This document shows positions 998 to 15,065 of a DNA stretch of 15,065 nucleotides, piece after piece. Source of the stretch: a virus (Duplodnaviria > Heunggongvirae > Uroviricota > Caudoviricetes); IMG/VR virus record IMGVR_UViG_648276665_000002, positions 1 through 15,065 of that record; one strand, written 5' to 3'. The notes beneath the pieces were generated by a model. The model searched no databases. It saw only the letters and a program-made list of their open reading frames with translations, and was not told where the DNA came from. How positions within the stretch are numbered: the stretch's first letter is position 1; each line of letters opens with the position of its first letter. The position numbers and the translations under genes are program-made.

Positions 998-2493
998 TAT
1001 GCAGACTCCTCTGAATACTGAAGACGGAACTGGTTAACCACGGCAAAGACACGCAACTGGTTAACATAGTCAGGCGGGAACAGCGTGTTCAAGCGGTTCG
1101 GATCGCTGGCATCACGCTCCACAACCAGGTACTGCTTAAACAGTTCGTAGTTTTCCACGATCCCCGCACGCTCAAGCTGACGGTAGGTTGCCAGCAGTTC
1201 CCCTTTGATCACCGCCGGGGTGACAATCGCCTGACCGGGACCAAAGCGGGTACCGTCGCTGGCAAGCTTGTGACGCCCGTACTTACTGGTAATGACGGAT
1301 TTCAGTTTGCGCAGCACATACGCGCTGGTATGCAGCGTCTCGCTGTCGAGGTAGCTGTTATCCGCAACACCGTAAGCGTTTTTCCTGTACGTGGTGACAT
1401 CACGCTGAATGCGCAGCACCCCGCTTTCGACATACGCCGTTGCCACGCCATGAGACAGCAGGGTCTGTTGTTCGGTCATCGTGAACCGTTTCCCCTTCGG
1501 CGCAGGCAGCATACCCACCAGCTCACCGGTCTGCGTGGGACGTGCCGGATCGTTGCGAATAAACACCGCTGCGCGGGCGGTACGGCTTGCCGCCAGCTCG
1601 TCGGCAGGCGTCTGGGTCTCTTTTTCGTATCCCGCCAGGGTAATGTGCTGCTGGTTAAACTGGTCACCTGCGGTCACCAGTTCTGACAGCGTGCCGATCT
1701 TTGCCGTATACACATGACCATACAGCTGACGCGCATAGCTCCAGCGACCGCTGGTATCGTTCATCTCGGTCACCAGCGTGTTAACGGAGGCCGTGTCGTT
1801 GAACGGCAGGCCGATATAATCAAACGGCTCATCCGCCATTGCAGCCACCGCGCCGGTGAGAACAGGAGCGCCCGTTCCGGCGGTACCCGTCGCCACGGCA
1901 ATCTGTACGCCCGCTGGCAGCACTTCGCCCCCACCAAAGCCGTAGTAATTGAGGCTGACAGGAATTTCATTCCCGCAAAGCCCCTTATGACGCGCGGTCA
2001 GTGTGACCACGCCTGCCGAAGATGAGGCAGTAAACGGCAGGGTCGGAACGGCATTGATGGCATCTTTGATACTGCTGGCAATCGTCGCGACGTTATCGCC
2101 GTTGGTCACCGGTGCCTGCACGCGGGTACGTCCCACATACACATTCACCGTGCCGGTTTCGGTTGCCTCCCCGGTCACCGTCAGCGTAACCGTTGCCGCC
2201 GCGCCTGTGGCTTCCGGAACGGCAATCACATACAGCTCGCCAAACGGGTCAGTCTGGCGATAAGCCTCGACCATACGCGCCAGCTGACTTCCCGCACCAC
2301 AAATCTGGCGTGCATAGTCTGCCGACGGCATCAGCACCAGACTGTTGGCAACAATCTCTGCACCGTTATTGGCATGACCAATCAGCAGCGATGCTCCGCT
2401 GTCCTGTGCAGTATTCGCCGCCTGGTTATCCATTTCCGCATAAAACAACGGAACCAGCGTATTCGACGGAATGGTGTTAAAGCTTGTCGTCAT
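997..2493 (-). CDS. Contractile tail sheath protein (Mu gpL-like)
   Basis: 498 aa; ATG at 2493..2491; size and sequence character typical of Mu/SfV-type sheath proteins; followed by the tube gene. Confidence 0.8.
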   Translation of the reverse strand: MTTSFNTIPSNTLVPLFYAEMDNQAANTAQDSGASLLIGHANNGAEIVANSLVLMPSADYARQICGAGSQLARMVEAYRQTDPFGELYVIAVPEATGAAATVTLTVTGEATETGTVNVYVGRTRVQAPVTNGDNVATIASSIKDAINAVPTLPFTASSSAGVVTLTARHKGLCGNEIPVSLNYYGFGGGEVLPAGVQIAVATGTAGTGAPVLTGAVAAMADEPFDYIGLPFNDTASVNTLVTEMNDTSGRWSYARQLYGHVYTAKIGTLSELVTAGDQFNQQHITLAGYEKETQTPADELAASRTARAAVFIRNDPARPTQTGELVGMLPAPKGKRFTMTEQQTLLSHGVATAYVESGVLRIQRDVTTYRKNAYGVADNSYLDSETLHTSAYVLRKLKSVITSKYGRHKLASDGTRFGPGQAIVTPAVIKGELLATYRQLERAGIVENYELFKQYLVVERDASDPNRLNTLFPPDYVNQLRVFAVVNQFRLQYSEESA

Positions 2494-2647
2494 CGGTATT
2501 CACCTTTTTATTCACGCGCCGGATATCACCCGCTGCTTCACGGCGCAGCCAGTAGTTGTTCTCGTCAACATTTCGCCCTTCGGCGGGCAAAAGGTCGTCG
2601 CGGGCAGGGTCAGGCACTGACCGCCCTTTAACAGGTTTGACAAACAT
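2477..2647 (-). CDS. Small protein preceding the sheath gene (DUF2635-like, Mu-type tail module)
   Basis: ATG at 2647..2645 with GAGGA about 5 nt upstream; 56 aa, MFVKPVKGRSVPDPARDDLLPAEGRNVDENNYWLRREAAGDIRRVNKKVNTDDDKL; overlaps the sheath start by 17 nt. Below the 60-aa cutoff of the ORF track, found by manual translation. Confidence 0.45.
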   Translation of the reverse strand: MFVKPVKGRSVPDPARDDLLPAEGRNVDENNYWLRREAAGDIRRVNKKVNTDDDKL

Positions 2648-2655
2648 GAGGATCC

Positions 2656-3216
2656 TCAGGAAGGAAGGGTTATTTCGGTGTGATGTTCGATATCGCCGTC
2701 AGGCCCGTTACCGGGATCGAGATAATCGACATCAATCGCCAGCGTTTGCAGTTCATCCAGACTGTTCAGATCATCCTGCTGGCGGGTATCGTCTTCAGTC
2801 AGCTCGCTGATGACCGAAAAATCGAACTGATAAATCAGCTCATGACGATTCAGATCCAGCAGCGTGCCGCCGTCATAGGTAATCGGGTTACCGCACGCTT
2901 CCGGGTTCCAGCCCAGCAGGGCCTTAAAGAGCATCTGCCGGACATCGTCCACCACATCATACGAGGCAAACTGACCGCGCTCATCACGCCCGTTACTCAG
3001 TATGACAACCACGGAGAAACCCTCTTTCAGCTCCTGCCAGTAGTCGGTCTGGCTTTTGTTTTCTCCCGGAGAATCATCACCCGGTACAACATATGCCGCC
3101 GGGAGTTTCAGCTTTCCGACCTCCGGCAGATTTTTGAACTGGGCCGCGCCTGCAACCCGGTTTTCAAAATACGGACAGCGGGCACGCAGTGCAGCAATAA
3201 CAGGCGTCAGTTTCAT
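2656..3216 (-). CDS. Putative tail terminator / neck protein of Mu-type tail module
   Basis: 186 aa; ATG at 3216..3214 overlaps the upstream TGA (ATGA); acidic C-terminal half; sits between head-completion genes and the sheath gene. Confidence 0.45.
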   Translation of the reverse strand: MKLTPVIAALRARCPYFENRVAGAAQFKNLPEVGKLKLPAAYVVPGDDSPGENKSQTDYWQELKEGFSVVVILSNGRDERGQFASYDVVDDVRQMLFKALLGWNPEACGNPITYDGGTLLDLNRHELIYQFDFSVISELTEDDTRQQDDLNSLDELQTLAIDVDYLDPGNGPDGDIEHHTEITLPS

Positions 3217-3719
3217 CTGTGTCGTCGCTCCGGCTTCAGTGATTTACGCAATTCCCGCGCCAGAAAATAGCGTGTCCAGCTGCGGTTCTTTTCAAGCGTT
3301 TCCACCATGAAGTTATTACGTGGAGCCAGTCGCCAGCCGCTGCCACCGGATGCACCACGATGATGACTACGACGACGTTTTGCTCCTCCCCGGACACCAA
3401 AAAACAGAAACGCCGGATAGAAGTCACCAGAGATCATCCGGTTCCCCTTCCCGTTGCGCTGGTTAGGGGCAATGCGTGTCATAAAACCGGCTCGCTTTTT
3501 ACTGGCTCTCGGCACCATATAACCAATCGAACGAGCCAGGCGTCCGGTCTGATAACCGGGGTTTTCACCCGGTGCCGACCGCGCACGGCGCATCACCAGC
3601 CGACGGGCATCACGCATATGACGCTGCCCAATCGTGACAAACGCCCGCCGGACACGAGCGCGGTTAAAGCGCATCTCGGCGGGCTGCTGAACATCAACGT
3701 GAAAAAAGGGAGTCGCCAT
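3213..3719 (-). CDS. HK97 gp10-family head-tail joining / tail completion protein
   Basis: 168 aa; GGAGG 6 nt upstream of ATG 3719..3717; motifs TGRLARSI, FYPAFLFFG and APRNNFMVETLEKNR resemble the gp10 family. Confidence 0.65.
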   Translation of the reverse strand: MATPFFHVDVQQPAEMRFNRARVRRAFVTIGQRHMRDARRLVMRRARSAPGENPGYQTGRLARSIGYMVPRASKKRAGFMTRIAPNQRNGKGNRMISGDFYPAFLFFGVRGGAKRRRSHHRGASGGSGWRLAPRNNFMVETLEKNRSWTRYFLARELRKSLKPERRHR

Positions 3720-4104
3720 TGCTGCCTCCGTGACTCTGCCTACATTCGCCCAGCTCCGTACACTCCAGCAGCAGAAAGCGCCGCGCCCCGTTCAGATCGC
3801 GCTGACGTTTCACCCGGTACACACTGTCATCACAGACCACCTCATAATCAGCAGTGATCCCCCGGCGGTAGCGAATGGTGATGTAATGGGTGATGGCGTC
3901 TCCGGTCTGCGCGGTTTCCTGCCAGGTGGTGGCACTGGTCTGGATAACCTTCGCCCATGCCCGGAACGCAACCGGGTATTGAGGCTCCACGCCAAAGTTA
4001 TCCGCGGGCATATCCACCCGCTGGCGGATCAGGACGCGTTTATTCAGTTCGCCGGGGTCCGGCAGAATGTAGGTTGCGCTGGTCTGCGCCTGACGAATTT
4101 TCAT
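3694..4104 (-). CDS. Head-tail adaptor / head closure protein
   Basis: 136 aa; ATG at 4104..4102 overlaps the connector TGA (ATGA coupling); position between connector and gp10 genes. Confidence 0.6.
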   Translation of the reverse strand: MKIRQAQTSATYILPDPGELNKRVLIRQRVDMPADNFGVEPQYPVAFRAWAKVIQTSATTWQETAQTGDAITHYITIRYRRGITADYEVVCDDSVYRVKRQRDLNGARRFLLLECTELGECRQSHGGSNGDSLFSR

Positions 4105-10413: not shown

Positions 10414-11170
10414 TATTAATGTCCTAAATAGTTTCCTCTCTAAAAACTAATTTGTGTTAGGGAAATCATTAAATGAAGTGAACCTTTTAGTACCCACTGT
10501 AAAATTCACTTCATTAATATTTAACCAAATACAATGAATGTTCCAAAAGATGCTAATGATATATTTATCAGAGAATCCATACGAGCCTTAATTTCTGGCG
10601 TATTCTCGACCTCAGTACGCCATTGATTGACTGCCTCAATCATATCTCGACAAAACACATCTATTTGCAACTGAAGTTTGCCATTTAAGTGATTTAAATG
10701 CACTTGGCAATTTGTCCTAGGTGGTGGTGTAAAATTAAACTGCATCATTCTTTTCCTGTTCTCTGGATCCTGTCCAGCATGTAAACAAGAACAACGATAC
10801 AGCCAAAAATCATCCGCATAAAATCGACACTGTTCATGTGTACCGGATGTATATTTATTTTCAAGATAACGAGAAACCCAATCTTTATACCATTTCCCTG
10901 TTTCACCCTTACCTATTTTGGGACGTTCAACGCTCCTGCAAATATCAGGCATAGCAAGAGCCATAAACAATGCCGCTAACCAATTCTCACTTTCAATTGA
11001 AGATTCAATTGATTTTATAAACCTTTCCATAACTCACCTTTATATTATTTGATGATTATATTTATAGCACAGTTACAATCATTTTCCGGAAAATATTTAT
11101 TCATTTTGATATCCTATTTTTAGAATATCCTTTTTATCTCTATTGCATTGCGCTAATGCAGATAACAAAC
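10414..11170. other. AT-rich cargo island A between the lysis cassette and HNH/terminase
   Basis: Base composition drops visibly between about 10414 and 11170 relative to flanking phage genes; contains one well-formed ORF with its own RBS. Confidence 0.6.
10521..11030 (-). CDS. Hypothetical protein of unknown function (cargo of island A)
   Basis: 169 aa; AGGTGA 5 nt upstream of ATG 11030..11028; TAA stop at 10523..10521; AT-rich codon usage unlike neighbouring genes; hydrophobic C-terminal segment (LINISLASFGTFIVFG); no family recognised. Confidence 0.6.
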   Translation of the reverse strand: MERFIKSIESSIESENWLAALFMALAMPDICRSVERPKIGKGETGKWYKDWVSRYLENKYTSGTHEQCRFYADDFWLYRCSCLHAGQDPENRKRMMQFNFTPPPRTNCQVHLNHLNGKLQLQIDVFCRDMIEAVNQWRTEVENTPEIKARMDSLINISLASFGTFIVFG

Positions 11171-12088: not shown

Positions 12089-12415
12089 TTACTCCTTAGA
12101 GCCACCAAACTTATTACCGATTACTCTCATTGCAGCCCCACGAATAGCATCGACCCCGATCAGCCCAACGCCGCCACCAATGGCAACAGAAAGAGATTTA
12201 GGCCATCCGACATACTCAAGAGCGGATGCAAAAGTCAGCGTCAGAGCACCACAGAGCAAAATCTCGAGCGTTTTTCGTTTCCAGCCACCACCACCGCCAA
12301 AATAGGCAATGCGCAAGCCAGCCATAACGATCGACATAATCACTGCGCCCAGCGGTGTGTCTCCACGCCACCAGCTCTGGACCAACTCCAGCCAGGTATT
12401 TGGGTTATGAGGCAT
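12089..12415 (-). CDS. Holin
   Basis: 108 aa; hydrophobic Gly-rich segments consistent with 2-3 TM helices; immediately upstream of the endolysin. Confidence 0.75.
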   Translation of the reverse strand: MPHNPNTWLELVQSWWRGDTPLGAVIMSIVMAGLRIAYFGGGGGWKRKTLEILLCGALTLTFASALEYVGWPKSLSVAIGGGVGLIGVDAIRGAAMRVIGNKFGGSKE

Positions 12416-12557: not shown

Positions 12558-12596
12558 AGAAACGACAAAACCCGCTCGAAGACGGGTTTAAGCTGT
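12558..12596 (-). terminator. Candidate tR'-like intrinsic terminator upstream of the holin
   Basis: Plus 12568-12589 aaacccg-ctcgaaga-cgggttt; on the minus strand the 7-bp stem is followed by ttgtcgttt. Position upstream of the holin resembles the lambdoid pR'-tR' arrangement. Confidence 0.3.
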
Positions 12597-12599
12597 GTG

Positions 12600-12697
12600 G
12601 CGAAGTAACCACTCTTAACAGATTACAAGAATTTTTGCGTACGCGTTAATTTTTTTGTATTTTTCTCATTACACAACATATAAACCCTATGTAAAAA
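12600..12697. promoter_or_regulatory. AT-rich divergent promoter region: candidate late promoter (minus strand) and candidate promoter of the island B operon (plus strand)
   Basis: Plus strand: TTACAA...TTAATT and TTGCGT-17nt-TATTTT hexamer candidates upstream of ATG 12698. Minus strand: TTAACG-16nt-TGTAAT about 40 nt upstream of the tR'-like hairpin. All by eye. Confidence 0.25.
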
Positions 12698-13981
12698 ATG
12701 ACAGCAGAAATAGCCGTATTTAACAAGACCGCAGTAGCTTTAGCCGCAGATTCAGCTGTAACGATTTCTGGAGGCGGCAAACATAAAATCTATAATGGCG
12801 CTGAAAAGCTTTTCGCTCTAACTAAACATCATCCTGTAGGTTTGATGGTATATGGAACTGGTGATCTCTGCACAGCTCCATGGGAGCTTATCATTAAGGC
12901 TTATAGAAAGGATTTAGGCTCTAAATGTTTTGACTCTTTGGAGGAATATGCTGAGGATTTCTTCAATTATCTACAGTCGGCTAAATCAATCATCACACCA
13001 GGTATGCGTGAGGCTCATCTTTATCACTTCCTGAGCGAGATTGTATTCAGCATGCTTGTTGATGCTTTTTCTGAAGGTCTCGAACCAACATATTTCGTTA
13101 ACTTCGATAAGAATCAATTTGTTACAGACCTCACGAATTATTGCAACGATCTCCTTACAAAATTATCTGATATTAATTACTTTGATGGTTTTACTCCGGA
13201 TGATGAACAAGCAGCCCAAACCTATGCTTCATCAGTTACCCAACGCATCATTGCTCAAAAGTTTAGTGACTTTGATTCAATATCCATAACCCCACAGTTG
13301 ACAAAAGCAGTTAGTGATGTATTGGCAGCTATGATATGCAAGCAAAGTGATATTGGTTCCGTCTCTGGGATTGTGATTGCAGGTTATGGCGATAAAGACT
13401 ATTACCCTAAAGTATTATCATATGAAGTTTGTGGCTTCTTTAATGATAAAATCAGGAAAACCACAGATGCTGACAAGTGCTGCATCACTCCTAATTGCGG
13501 AGTGACTCCCTTTGCGCAAGAGGATGAAGTTTCTGCTTTCATGCAAGGAGCTAGTTCACATCTTATTCAAAATCTTCATGCTGAGTATCAACGTTCTATC
13601 GGCGATTTACTTGATGGTATTGATTCAGTAATCACAGATTTGGTGCCCACTTCAGATATCGAAGGAGCCAAGGATGCTATAGTTGATGTAGTGCGCAGGA
13701 CTGTTTCCGATTGCAAGGGGCGTATTGATAGCTTTGTCCGAGAAAACTATGTTGACAAAGTCGTAAATATGATCGAGTTTTTACCCAAGCAAGATTTAGC
13801 TTATATGGCTGAATCATTAGTAAATTTAACCGCTTTCAAGCGCAAGGTCTCCGATGATACTGAAACAGTGGGAGGCCCCATAGATGTTGCAATCATTTCT
13901 AAAGCTGATGGTTTTATCTGGGTTAAACGTAAGCACTATTTTGCAAAAGAACTGAACCATCACTACTTTTCACGGTCATAG
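12698..13981 (+). CDS. 427-aa protein with a putative N-terminal-nucleophile (HslV/proteasome-beta-like) hydrolase domain and an unassigned C-terminal region
   Basis: ATG 12698, TAG at 13979-13981. Begins M-T (MTAEIAVFNKTAVALAADSAVTISGGGKHKIYNGAEKLFAL..VGLMVYGTGDL); compare HslV [24 protein letters not shown]...KKVRRL...AGFAGGTAD. Thr directly after Met, Asp at the Asp17-equivalent position, KLF as in proteasome GKKLF, a GxG-D motif, and CGVTPFAQ (267-274) versus HslV GSGGPYAQ. No clear SD upstream. Confidence 0.6.
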   Translation: MTAEIAVFNKTAVALAADSAVTISGGGKHKIYNGAEKLFALTKHHPVGLMVYGTGDLCTAPWELIIKAYRKDLGSKCFDSLEEYAEDFFNYLQSAKSIITPGMREAHLYHFLSEIVFSMLVDAFSEGLEPTYFVNFDKNQFVTDLTNYCNDLLTKLSDINYFDGFTPDDEQAAQTYASSVTQRIIAQKFSDFDSISITPQLTKAVSDVLAAMICKQSDIGSVSGIVIAGYGDKDYYPKVLSYEVCGFFNDKIRKTTDADKCCITPNCGVTPFAQEDEVSAFMQGASSHLIQNLHAEYQRSIGDLLDGIDSVITDLVPTSDIEGAKDAIVDVVRRTVSDCKGRIDSFVRENYVDKVVNMIEFLPKQDLAYMAESLVNLTAFKRKVSDDTETVGGPIDVAIISKADGFIWVKRKHYFAKELNHHYFSRS

Positions 13982-14004
13982 CAACAAATAGACAAGGGGA
14001 ACAC

Positions 14005-14154
14005 ATGTCACTTAAGCAAGCCTATGAAAGAACTCAACCCAAAAGCATCAATGATTTCTTTCAGTTGAGTACTTCTGGAAAGAGTCGACGTACTGTAACA
14101 AGCCAATCTAACTTCTTTACTAAATTGAACAAAACATTACCTGCACAATCCTAA
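14005..14154 (+). CDS. Small hydrophilic basic protein (49 aa), second gene of the island B operon
   Basis: AAGGGGA 5 nt upstream of ATG 14005; MSLKQAYERTQPKSINDFFQLSTSGKSRRTVTSQSNFFTKLNKTLPAQS; TAA at 14152-14154 immediately followed by the terminator hairpin. Confidence 0.4.
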   Translation: MSLKQAYERTQPKSINDFFQLSTSGKSRRTVTSQSNFFTKLNKTLPAQS

Positions 14155-14193
14155 AAAGTTAAAAGCCACTACGGTGGCTTTTAACTTTTATTT
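14153..14193. terminator. Bidirectional intrinsic terminator shared by the island B operon (+) and the Q gene (-)
   Basis: Perfect 12-bp stem gttaaaagccac / gtggcttttaac (14158-14169 / 14174-14185) with tacg loop, flanked by A5 on the 5' side and ttttattt on the 3' side, so a U-tract follows the hairpin on either strand. Confidence 0.65.
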
Positions 14194-14538
14194 ACATGCA
14201 ATAACGCTCGTAATACCCTCTACAAAACCAATTGCAGTTTGCAATTCCTTTCTAATCGTGCCATCTGAACACCTTCTCTTTTTGGCAATAGTGCGTAATG
14301 AGATACCAATAACAAAGTGGGCTATGATGAGCTCATATTCCTCTGGTTTATACCTTCTCAACCGAGCCACACAACTGTCTATCATAATGCCTTCGTCATC
14401 ATCACACTGAATCCGTGACTTTTTGCCATGAGGTAAAAGCCCCTTGAAGCCTGCTGCTATCGGCTGCCAGTCCACGCCACTGTTATCTGCTGCAGCCCAT
14501 GCTCCCCAGCGGTCCAATACTTCATACATATCACGCAT
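14188..14538 (-). CDS. Late-gene antiterminator Q (QuuD-like)
   Basis: ORF-track start at 14553 is TTG; likely start ATG 14538..14536 with GGAGAAAG upstream. MRDMYEVLDRWGAWAAADNSGVDWQPIAAGFKGLLPHGKKSRIQCDDDEGIMIDSCVARL parallels E. coli DLP12 QuuD (VLERWGAWAA...IAAGFKGL...SRPQCCDDD) as recalled from memory. Confidence 0.8.
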   Translation of the reverse strand: MRDMYEVLDRWGAWAAADNSGVDWQPIAAGFKGLLPHGKKSRIQCDDDEGIMIDSCVARLRRYKPEEYELIIAHFVIGISLRTIAKKRRCSDGTIRKELQTAIGFVEGITSVIACK

Positions 14539-14555
14539 CAACTTTCTCCACAAAA

Positions 14556-15065
14556 TCAGGCCAGCACGCCAATTGCCAGCGCACGATCGATAAAACGAAA
14601 TACCAGCTCCAGCTGGGAGCCATACTTCTCTTCAAATGCCACGGTATCCGCATGCAGCTCGTCGTGATGCTTTCTGCACAAAGGCAACACAAAGAGGTCA
14701 TGCGCTTTTGTACCCATCCCACCCTGACCGTGGCCTATCAGGTGGTGGGGATCATCAGCAGGCTTTCCACAACATGCACACGGCTGTGTCTTAACCCAGC
14801 GCGTGTACTTTTCATTAACCCAGCGGCGACGTTTTGGGCGTAACATAAAAGACTCCGGCGACTCCGGATCCACTTTCAGCGCCAGCACCTTTTTCGCCTT
14901 ATCCTGGATGATGCTGGTAGCAGGAACCGAAGGCACAAGGTCACTTTCCCGGGTAACAGACGGCACAACAGGCTTCGGTAATCTCAGTGCCTTACGGGCT
15001 GCACTTTCCGGTAAGGCATCCGCCAGGTCATTACGAACCAGCCACCAGCACAGTTCCGGCAGTCG
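14556..15065 (-). CDS. nin-region protein, DUF968-like (putative nuclease); 5' end beyond the right window edge
   Basis: Cys/His-rich motif CACCGKPADDPHHLIGHGQGGMGTKAHDLFVLPLCRKHHDELH. The reading frame stays open upstream of the ORF-track start (GTG at 14966) to position 15065 (…RLPELCWWLVRNDLADALPESAARKALRLPKPV-VPSVTRE…), so the gene probably starts outside the window. Confidence 0.55.
   Translation of the reverse strand, partial: RLPELCWWLVRNDLADALPESAARKALRLPKPVVPSVTRESDLVPSVPATSIIQDKAKKVLALKVDPESPESFMLRPKRRRWVNEKYTRWVKTQPCACCGKPADDPHHLIGHGQGGMGTKAHDLFVLPLCRKHHDELHADTVAFEEKYGSQLELVFRFIDRALAIGVLA

Follow-up and report, generated by a model that had tools for sequence, protein, structure and literature searches.

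A short gene missed by RefSeq in Escherichia coli accompanies the gene of a predicted proteasome-like hydrolase in a mobile two-gene cassette

The 49-codon open reading frame (ORF) located at the end of a low-GC insert in the window, i.e., in the whole 15,065-nt stretch of viral DNA that was analysed, is a genuine protein-coding gene, which has been missed by RefSeq in E. coli. Comparison of loci indicates that it is the second gene of a two-gene unit, composed of a weak putative promoter, a gene encoding a 427 aa protein, a 23-nt spacer, the gene encoding the 49 aa protein, and a terminator. The two genes are inherited and move together, and the small protein appears, from the loci compared, to be a near-constant genetic companion of a predicted threonine hydrolase of the proteasome superfamily. 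Of the functional explanations that can be considered for this pair, the one that we favour as a whole, with moderate confidence, is that the small protein binds and gates the proteasome-like hydrolase within a two-gene mobile cassette.

The coordinates and signals given for this ORF in the original prediction, which had been made from the sequence of the window, could be read directly and are all correct (Table 1). The ORF starts 24 nt past the stop codon of the 427-aa gene and is preceded by a clear AAGGGGA Shine-Dalgarno site, while the large gene has no visible one: the sequence upstream of it, ccctatgtaaaaaATG, contains no purine-rich site. In 10 of 10 diverged loci the small gene has a strong Shine-Dalgarno site in the same place, and the orthologous large genes have weak A/G-rich leaders only. 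The stop codon of the small ORF abuts a terminator hairpin, as predicted, its last base being the first base of the stem. The hairpin is wedged between two stop codons, as its far end overlaps the stop codon of the convergent gene of antiterminator Q. Its stem (-24.5 kcal/mol, z = -8.1) was not equalled in folding by any of 200 shuffled sequences. Moreover, both partners of one stem pair are substituted (T14159C and A14184G) in the nine cassette-bearing E. coli genomes, so that the stem is kept; this compensatory change supports a functional hairpin. Another substitution in these genomes, A14157T, results in a mismatch at the end of the stem. The small ORF itself does not differ in these nine genomes from that of the window by any substitution. 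A GC-rich hairpin is present directly 3' of the small ORF in every orthologous locus.

Table 1. Positions of the features of the window that are discussed in the text
Feature	Position	Strand	Remarks
Holin gene	12089-12415	-	Prophage context
tR'-like terminator of the phage late leader	12568..12589	-	Upstream of the holin gene
Candidate sigma-70 promoter of the cassette	12635..12663	+	TTGCGT, 17 nt, TATTTT; read from the sequence
Inserted cassette	12654..14187	.	Low GC, antisense, between the Q gene and the phage late-promoter/terminator region
Large ORF: gene of predicted proteasome-beta-like Ntn hydrolase, 427 aa	12698..13981	+	TAG at 13979-13981; Met1-Thr2 invariant; helical insertions ~95-215 and ~285-362
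Shine-Dalgarno site of the small gene	13994..14000	+	AAGGGGA, 4 nt before the ATG
Small gene	14005..14154	+	ATG at 14005, TAA at 14152-14154, 49 codons; product MSLKQAYERTQPKSINDFFQLSTSGKSRRTVTSQSNFFTKLNKTLPAQS
Bidirectional intrinsic terminator hairpin	14154..14189	.	16-bp stem, 14154-14169 with 14174-14189
Antiterminator Q gene	14188-14553	-	Pfam Phage_antitermQ, E 2e-44; PGAP annotation in locus L001; convergent with the cassette
DUF968 gene	14556-14966	-	Prophage context

The peptide encoded by the small ORF had been described as hydrophilic, basic, and rich in serine and threonine, with no transmembrane segment. Our analysis agrees with this description: its pI is 10.6, its GRAVY value is -0.88, 14 of its 49 residues (29%) are Ser or Thr, and there is no hydrophobic segment. 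The protein is predicted to be mostly disordered; its AlphaFold2 model (pTM 0.26) contains only two short helices, comprising residues 3-10 and 37-43.

The coding function of the ORF is indicated by the comparison with its counterparts in other enterobacteria. When the peptide was compared by tblastn with 80 genome loci encoding homologues of the large protein, it matched the position immediately behind the large gene with 60% identity (E 3e-12) in Enterobacter and with 42% identity (E 2e-8) in Buttiauxella, where the preceding large-gene homologues are 74% and 66% identical, respectively. Further loci, representing Klebsiella, Enterobacter, Citrobacter-like bacteria, Cronobacter, Salmonella, Serratia, and Pectobacterium, encode large proteins that are 57-89% identical to that of the window. 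In these enterobacterial loci, an intact ORF of 43-55 codons lies 13-23 nt past the stop codon of the large gene, flanked by a strong Shine-Dalgarno site on its 5' side and by a GC-rich hairpin on its 3' side. Ten diverged enterobacterial copies retain the frame, the ATG, and the strong Shine-Dalgarno site, and their indels are multiples of three. Alignments of the small proteins (A2 with 10 and A3 with 24 sequences) show orthologues of 31-98% identity with invariant M1, Q5, F18, F37, and F38 and with the conserved pattern MxLKQx[F/Y]xx[S/T]QPKx[V/I]xDFF, followed by a Lys-rich linker of variable length and NFFxxL. Synonymous sites, in turn, are saturated (pS 0.5-1.0, pN 0.05-0.48), with pN/pS of 0.09-0.6 in general and 0.09-0.18 in the closest informative pairs. 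For instance, pS is 0.84 and pN is 0.15 between the window and locus L082, and loci L082 and L084 differ by 17 synonymous vs. 6 non-synonymous changes. Two very large protein collections contain 26 clusters and 15 representative clusters of such proteins, all enterobacterial, free-standing, and 39-59 aa long, and the locus tags of several cluster members are adjacent to those of the large gene.

Because the amino acid sequence is conserved while the synonymous sites are saturated, and neither the frame nor the start codon nor the Shine-Dalgarno site is lost, we conclude that the ORF is a gene. Conservation of the ORF and its frame downstream of homologues of the 427-aa gene, which had been proposed as a check, was thus found in ten diverged enterobacterial loci. 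Frameshifts or stops in this region beside an intact large gene, named in advance as evidence to the contrary, occur in none of 15 diverged enterobacterial loci, and all 26 protein clusters are intact. The reading that the region is not a gene, but a spacer that happens to be open or a stretch in which the act of translation matters and its product does not (e.g., by keeping ribosomes up to the terminator), draws on the shortness of the ORF, the AT-richness of this DNA, and the fact that RefSeq/PGAP leaves the ORF unannotated in the nine E. coli carriers of the cassette, where the large gene is described as "hypothetical". However, other annotation pipelines do call the small ORF, and in composition-matched shuffles of the downstream region of the window, an ORF of 49 or more codons with its start no more than 40 nt from the stop codon arises in 3.6% of trials. 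Contradicted by the pattern of substitutions, by the in-frame indels, and by the conserved motifs, this reading is effectively excluded, and the non-coding spacer of the original prediction has to be rejected.

The window belongs to a lambdoid prophage, and the order of features on its minus strand is DUF968, Q, tR'-like terminator, holin, lysis cassette, HNH gene, small terminase subunit, and large terminase subunit. The 427-aa ORF and the 49-codon ORF are the contents of a plus-strand block between Q and the late leader, the GC content of which is 36-40%, as compared to 54% in the first 10 kb of the window. The cassette is carried by 9 of 5426 complete E. coli genomes, mostly of ETEC isolates, with 99.2% identity. 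In 145 further E. coli genomes only the flank is present, the match being limited to the first 57 query bases, which belong to the phage late region, and the similarity of the window to other E. coli prophages ends at about 12656. In ETEC H10407, the common sequence stops at the equivalent of about 12652, and a KAP NTPase gene with a hairpin of its own occupies the same slot; the comparison with this slot places the borders of the cassette at about 12654 and about 14187. The foreign composition, the own terminator, and the presence or absence between related prophages are the features of a moron.

The morons that lambdoid phages carry between Q and the lysis genes, such as stx of Stx phages, are likewise inserts of foreign composition with their own terminator, located in the Q-to-holin interval, and their content is exchangeable between related prophages. 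In the case described here, by contrast, the cargo runs antisense to the late operon and converges on Q; it is located upstream of the region of the late promoter and therefore lies outside Q-dependent late transcription. The interval between Q and the late promoter is an exchangeable slot for antisense cargo, the KAP family NTPase gene of H10407 (L102:2540-3975) being accompanied there by a bidirectional hairpin.

A candidate sigma-70 promoter (Table 1), which may be the own promoter of the cassette, overlaps the sequence shared with the phage late-promoter region of the opposite strand. The block with this candidate is kept in 9 of 10 enterobacterial loci. The candidate was not reported by a scan for consensus promoters, as only 8 of its 12 positions matched the consensus. 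A larger block, cacTCTTAaCAGATTACgAtAgTTTTTGCGTACGCGTTA...TTTGTATTTT (window positions 12600-12665), with the palindrome GCGTACGC at 12637-12644, is almost invariant in nine enterobacterial loci, the coding regions of which are synonymously saturated. Most of this block is also present in prophages without the cassette, and therefore it is probably the Q-dependent late promoter with the qut region, acting on the minus strand. Possibly, it doubles as a divergent promoter for the cargo. As for RNA alternatives, no Rfam family and no tRNA was detected in the window.

The product of the large gene, originally described as hydrolase-like, can be characterised more precisely: by its modelled fold and its catalytic residues it is a predicted threonine Ntn hydrolase of the proteasome superfamily, with a proteasome-beta fold, an N-terminal nucleophile, and no propeptide. 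The model displays the four-layer alpha-beta-beta-alpha fold of proteasome subunits. It consists of core strands (residues 5-53), a helix (62-94), a helical insert (101-214), strands (223-271), a helix (275-283), a second insert (287-360), a helix (364-385), and strands (395-411). Residues M1, T2, D18, and K37 are invariant in 59 homologues. The HMM alignment to the Thermoplasma beta subunit equates D18 with Glu17 and K37 (of KLF) with Lys33, so that all of the N-terminal Thr, Asp/Glu17, and Lys33 have their counterparts; the Thr would be exposed through removal of the Met. The second-shell residues Ser129, Asp166, and Ser169 are not preserved. The position of GSG is occupied by G229-Y230-G231, with Tyr in place of Ser129, while the "DxxSGG" motif reads T388-E389-T390-V391-G392-G393, in which the GG is kept and the Ser and Asp are out of register. 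The positions of Asp166 and Ser169 are not conserved, and the catalytic shell is only partly canonical.

Sequence searches with the large protein returned no hit in Pfam and nothing meaningful in PDB when the single sequence was used, and the best result of a PDB profile search was the Thermoplasma beta subunit with E of only about 1. Therefore, the assignment to the superfamily rests on the fold and the catalytic residues. No family was found in Pfam, NCBIfam, or PADLOC for either protein, and PADLOC-DB v2, candidate systems included, gave no hit for either of them at E up to 1. The viral structure library BFVD contained no match. Among PHROGs, the large protein corresponds to phrog_5990 (unknown function), and the hit of the small one is insignificant. 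The loop VTISGGGKHKIYNGA (residues 21-35) between strands S2 and S3 of the large protein belongs to its best-conserved stretches, with K30 and N33 invariant, yet the model is least confident there (pLDDT about 36). The loop may therefore be a mobile part of the active site, becoming ordered only upon the binding of a partner or a substrate.

Homologues of the large protein are numerous: more than 6300 were recognised among 8000 scored candidates, and they represent many phyla. The architecture of the protein, with a long insertion after H1/H2 and another one between H3 and H4, fits the description of the groups PMI-3 and PMI-4 of proteasome homologues (Fuchs, Alva and Lupas 2021, PMC8665760), and the taxonomic range together with the presence in phages and satellites appears to fit PMI-4 better than PMI-3. 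The similarities comprise the proteasome-beta-like core without a propeptide, the position of both insertions, and a broad distribution over Proteobacteria, Firmicutes, Actinobacteria, Bacteroidetes, PVC bacteria, one archaeon, and phages. PMI homologues are the most populous of the uncharacterised groups, and their insertions should prevent the formation of self-compartmentalising, stacked rings (PMC8665760). No genomic context or co-occurrence pattern suggestive of their function was found in that study (PMC8665760), in contrast to the near-universal presence of a co-encoded small ORF that we observed.

Results of our analysis indicate, namely, that in 95% of 78 usable loci an ORF of 45-90 aa (median 63 aa) begins no more than 40 nt from the end of the large gene, as compared to 25-29% in shuffled sequences and 44-51% on the antisense strand. 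These loci span Proteobacteria, Bacteroidota, Verrucomicrobiota, Planctomycetota, Chloroflexota, Acidobacteriota, Actinomycetota, Bacillota, Saccharibacteria, and one archaeon. The small ORFs often overlap the stop codon of the large gene (ATGA). Their products form several subfamilies, each with its own motifs, e.g., [L/F]xx[F/W]xxx[L/F]xP followed by an amphipathic helix in Gammaproteobacteria or LxxAIxxTQxxIxxAF in Alphaproteobacteria. Purifying selection is also seen in close pairs within these other subfamilies. Among enterobacterial pairs, the non-synonymous distances of the two genes are strongly correlated (r = 0.93), the small gene evolving about 1.7 times faster. As PMI-type homologues make up one of the largest uncharacterised parts of the proteasome family, a small protein that is almost always co-encoded with them and usually unannotated is the first genetic clue to the control of this family. 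To our reading of the literature, this near-universal partner was previously unreported, and its function is proposed here by inference. In practical terms, the 49-aa gene is an addition to RefSeq E. coli records, from which it is absent.

Whether the partners of different subfamilies have one origin was considered on the basis of profiles. An HMM of the ten enterobacterial small proteins matched none of those at distant loci, and local hhalign comparison of five subfamilies joined only C and E (probability 79.5%, E 1.5e-5), with E of at least 0.28 between subfamily A and the others. A likeness of the enterobacterial proteins to the alphaproteobacterial partners (LKQAxExTQxxIxxxF) was noticed by eye, and it is not claimed as homology, the profile comparisons being insignificant. 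Pfam contained nothing for ten small partners from other subfamilies. One ancient family of partners is thus suggested by position and not by sequence, and repeated replacement is a possible alternative.

Exceptions to the pairing are few. At the locus of Trichococcus palustris (L049:3989-5257), no small ORF follows the homologue of the large gene, and the next gene, 143 nt downstream, encodes an amino-acid permease; therefore, the large protein can exist alone. At locus L078 there is no ORF at the canonical position, and this is perhaps a second homologue without a small ORF. In searches of protein collections the small protein was never found alone, the context being known for part of the hits. 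No other gene was conserved around the pair in a survey of neighbours of the loci.

Prophages, phage satellites, and integrase islands all carry the pair as a self-contained unit of cargo. In enterobacteria it is nearly always convergent with Q, and its other flank is formed directly by the holin gene or by extra genes, which encode HicAB, TerB with DUF3927, or a DNA methyltransferase accompanied by tRNA genes. In Klebsiella, it follows a short CI-like repressor gene of a Rac-like prophage, in Alteromonas it is placed at the cargo end of a P4-like element, and in Vibrio it is enclosed by integrase genes, with a type I restriction-modification system as its neighbour. Streptococcus satellites carry it at the last position, at their cargo end. 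A small ORF of the pair is annotated in the satellite Javan103 (55 aa) and in a Providencia phage record (58 aa). The option of the original prediction that the small protein could be a partner of the large one (a regulator, inhibitor, or adaptor) has genetic support, as the two genes are together in every context examined and an equivalent small ORF follows about 95% of distant homologues; the partnership may also be a physical one.

What this partnership could consist in is suggested by the properties of both proteins. The basic (pI 10.6), largely disordered small protein would bind the acidic (pI 5.0) hydrolase by means of its N-terminal helix, MxLKQx[F/Y], and two [D/N]FF motifs, and would control the access to an active site that is otherwise constitutively exposed, thus acting as a gatekeeper or an antitoxin-like inhibitor. 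The strong Shine-Dalgarno site suggests that it is made in excess, and, being disordered, it is probably labile. The hydrolase would be released once the small protein is lost or displaced, and the cassette would most likely be of use to the lysogen in conflicts, under stress, or against phages. We infer the gating from the absence of a propeptide (Met1-Thr2 invariant) together with insertions that have been argued to exclude rings (PMC8665760), from the opposite charges of the two proteins, from the fast evolution of the small protein in step with the enzyme, from its predicted lack of a fold, and from its stronger ribosome-binding site in every orthologue. A role in conflict is suggested by the KAP NTPase in the same slot, by HicAB or TerB beside some relatives, and by the adjacency of Bub operons at 7 of 80 loci. 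Arguments against gating are that the large protein can exist alone and that its activity, with a catalytic shell that is partly canonical, is a prediction. An antitoxin-like role is further weakened by the second position of the small gene and by the lack of a DNA-binding domain in its product, both of which are atypical for classical type II antitoxins.

The comparison with toxin-first type II toxin-antitoxin systems (HigBA, HicAB, MqsRA), as well as with prophage cargo composed of a protease and a small regulator, is instructive in this respect. The similarities include a self-terminated, mobile cassette of two adjacent, co-transcribed genes, of which the second is smaller and has a stronger ribosome-binding site, and HicAB is a neighbour of the pair in some relatives. 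However, neither of the proteins has a known toxin or antitoxin domain, and the small one has no DNA-binding fold.

The conserved [D/N]FF motifs might also be read as marks of a dedicated substrate or tag. The hydrolase, with a high specificity for its sequence, would then cleave the small protein near these motifs or transfer the peptide by transpeptidation, and the active product would be a processed peptide, an N-degron fragment, or a tag. A precedent is offered by Connectase (the MJ0548 family), a structural neighbour of the large protein, which is also a non-ring proteasome homologue with Thr1 and without a propeptide and which works on one specific short peptide motif, the recognition peptide of MtrA. 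Connectase differs from the large protein in having an insertion between S3 and S4 and no H1/H2, and its substrate is not encoded alongside it; the large protein keeps H1-H4, its insertions are different, and it is not known to have ligase or cleavage activity. Moreover, the large protein has a conserved active-site region but the motifs of its partners differ completely between subfamilies, the C-termini of the small proteins are variable and offer no Gly-Gly or GGQ-like handle, and the pair is not accompanied by any modification or export genes. We consider this explanation unlikely, and gating of the enzyme by the small protein remains the reading that we prefer.

Short disordered proteins tied to a proteasome-type enzyme are known in other systems, namely Pup, which is encoded beside prcBA and thus shares an operon with the protease genes, Ump1/POMP, and PI31. 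None of them has sequence similarity to the small protein, which lacks the GGQ/GGE of Pup and an HbYX-type C-terminus, and no Mpa/PafA-type partners are encoded near the pair. The idea of a Pup-like or ubiquitin-like tag was abandoned, since the C-termini vary (PAQS, PSNT, SHTS, SQPI, and others) and the protein has two short helices only and no beta-grasp. A PIP-box or beta-clamp motif was likewise discarded: Q11..I15..F18F19 has one residue too many between the Q and the hydrophobic position. Besides, the ligand of PIP boxes, PCNA, is absent from bacteria.

Ump1 is a small natively disordered protein that is needed for the assembly of the 20S proteasome and is degraded on its completion. By analogy, and given the lack of a propeptide in the large protein, the small protein might be an assembly factor, similar to Ump1/POMP or to a propeptide supplied in trans, that templates oligomerisation of the hydrolase and is then destroyed. 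We regard this as highly improbable, since the two insertions occupy positions argued to be incompatible with stacked rings (PMC8665760).

The roles of both proteins could also be reversed, so that the small basic protein would be an effector or toxin acting on nucleic acid or a host target and the hydrolase would control it by continual degradation or sequestration. Its very basic, Lys/Arg-rich composition with paired aromatic motifs and the high synthesis suggested by its Shine-Dalgarno site are compatible with such a role, as is the preference of proteasome-type enzymes for degrading disordered proteins without ATPases (PMC8665760). The rapid divergence and the turnover of subfamilies, however, fit a partner coevolving with the enzyme better than an effector of a conserved target, and it is the large protein that is far more conserved and, rarely, alone, the small one never being alone in the searches made. 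In our opinion this reversal of roles is quite unlikely.

Bub ubiquitination-like ("6E/DUF6527") operons directly adjoin the pair at seven loci (L022, L050, L055, L060, L063, L066, and L078) of three phyla, assigned as Alphaproteobacteria, Actinomycetota, and Eisenbacteria. Those of type I encode a Multi_ubiq Ubl, Prok-E2_E, JAB-ThiF E1, and DUF6527, and those of type II encode DUF6791-ThiF and DUF6527. The operons are co-directional with the pair and immediately upstream of it in L055, L060, and L063, and convergent with it in L050 and L066. In L055, the Bub operon (1244-3988) is directly followed by the proteasome-like gene, which starts at 4001. The papers on Bub and on the proteasome homologues that were found do not mention a link between the two, and the literature search yielded no paper linking this family of homologues to defence, no relevant follow-up on PMI proteins, and no relevant mention of the RefSeq accession. 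The location of the cassette where prophages, satellites, and integrase islands typically accumulate cargo, taken together with the Bub adjacency, points to a role in phage-host conflict. A more specific proposal, according to which the pair is a regulated-proteolysis module of conflict or stress systems allied with Bub pathways, in which the small protein would be the gate or sensor, is speculative and has a low probability in our view. If true, this alliance would be a phage-borne bacterial counterpart of the axis composed of ubiquitin-like conjugation and the proteasome.

Regulatory genes are also found next to some pairs. In a Klebsiella pneumoniae Rac-like prophage (L096-L098:4467-6469), the gene of a CI-like HTH repressor without a peptidase domain is immediately followed, in the same direction, by the genes of a 44%-identical homologue of the large protein and of its 51-aa partner; in lambda, this place belongs to rexAB. 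A Cro/C1 HTH gene separates the module from the Bub operons in L022, L055, and L078. By analogy to ImmR/ImmA or CapH/CapP, a relation in which the protease acts on the repressor is conceivable.

Another piece of cargo may be present in the window itself. A second patch of low GC content (33-40%), located at 10521-11030 on the minus strand between the Rz1/LysC-like gene and the HNH endonuclease gene, contains an ORF of 169 aa with no match in Pfam.
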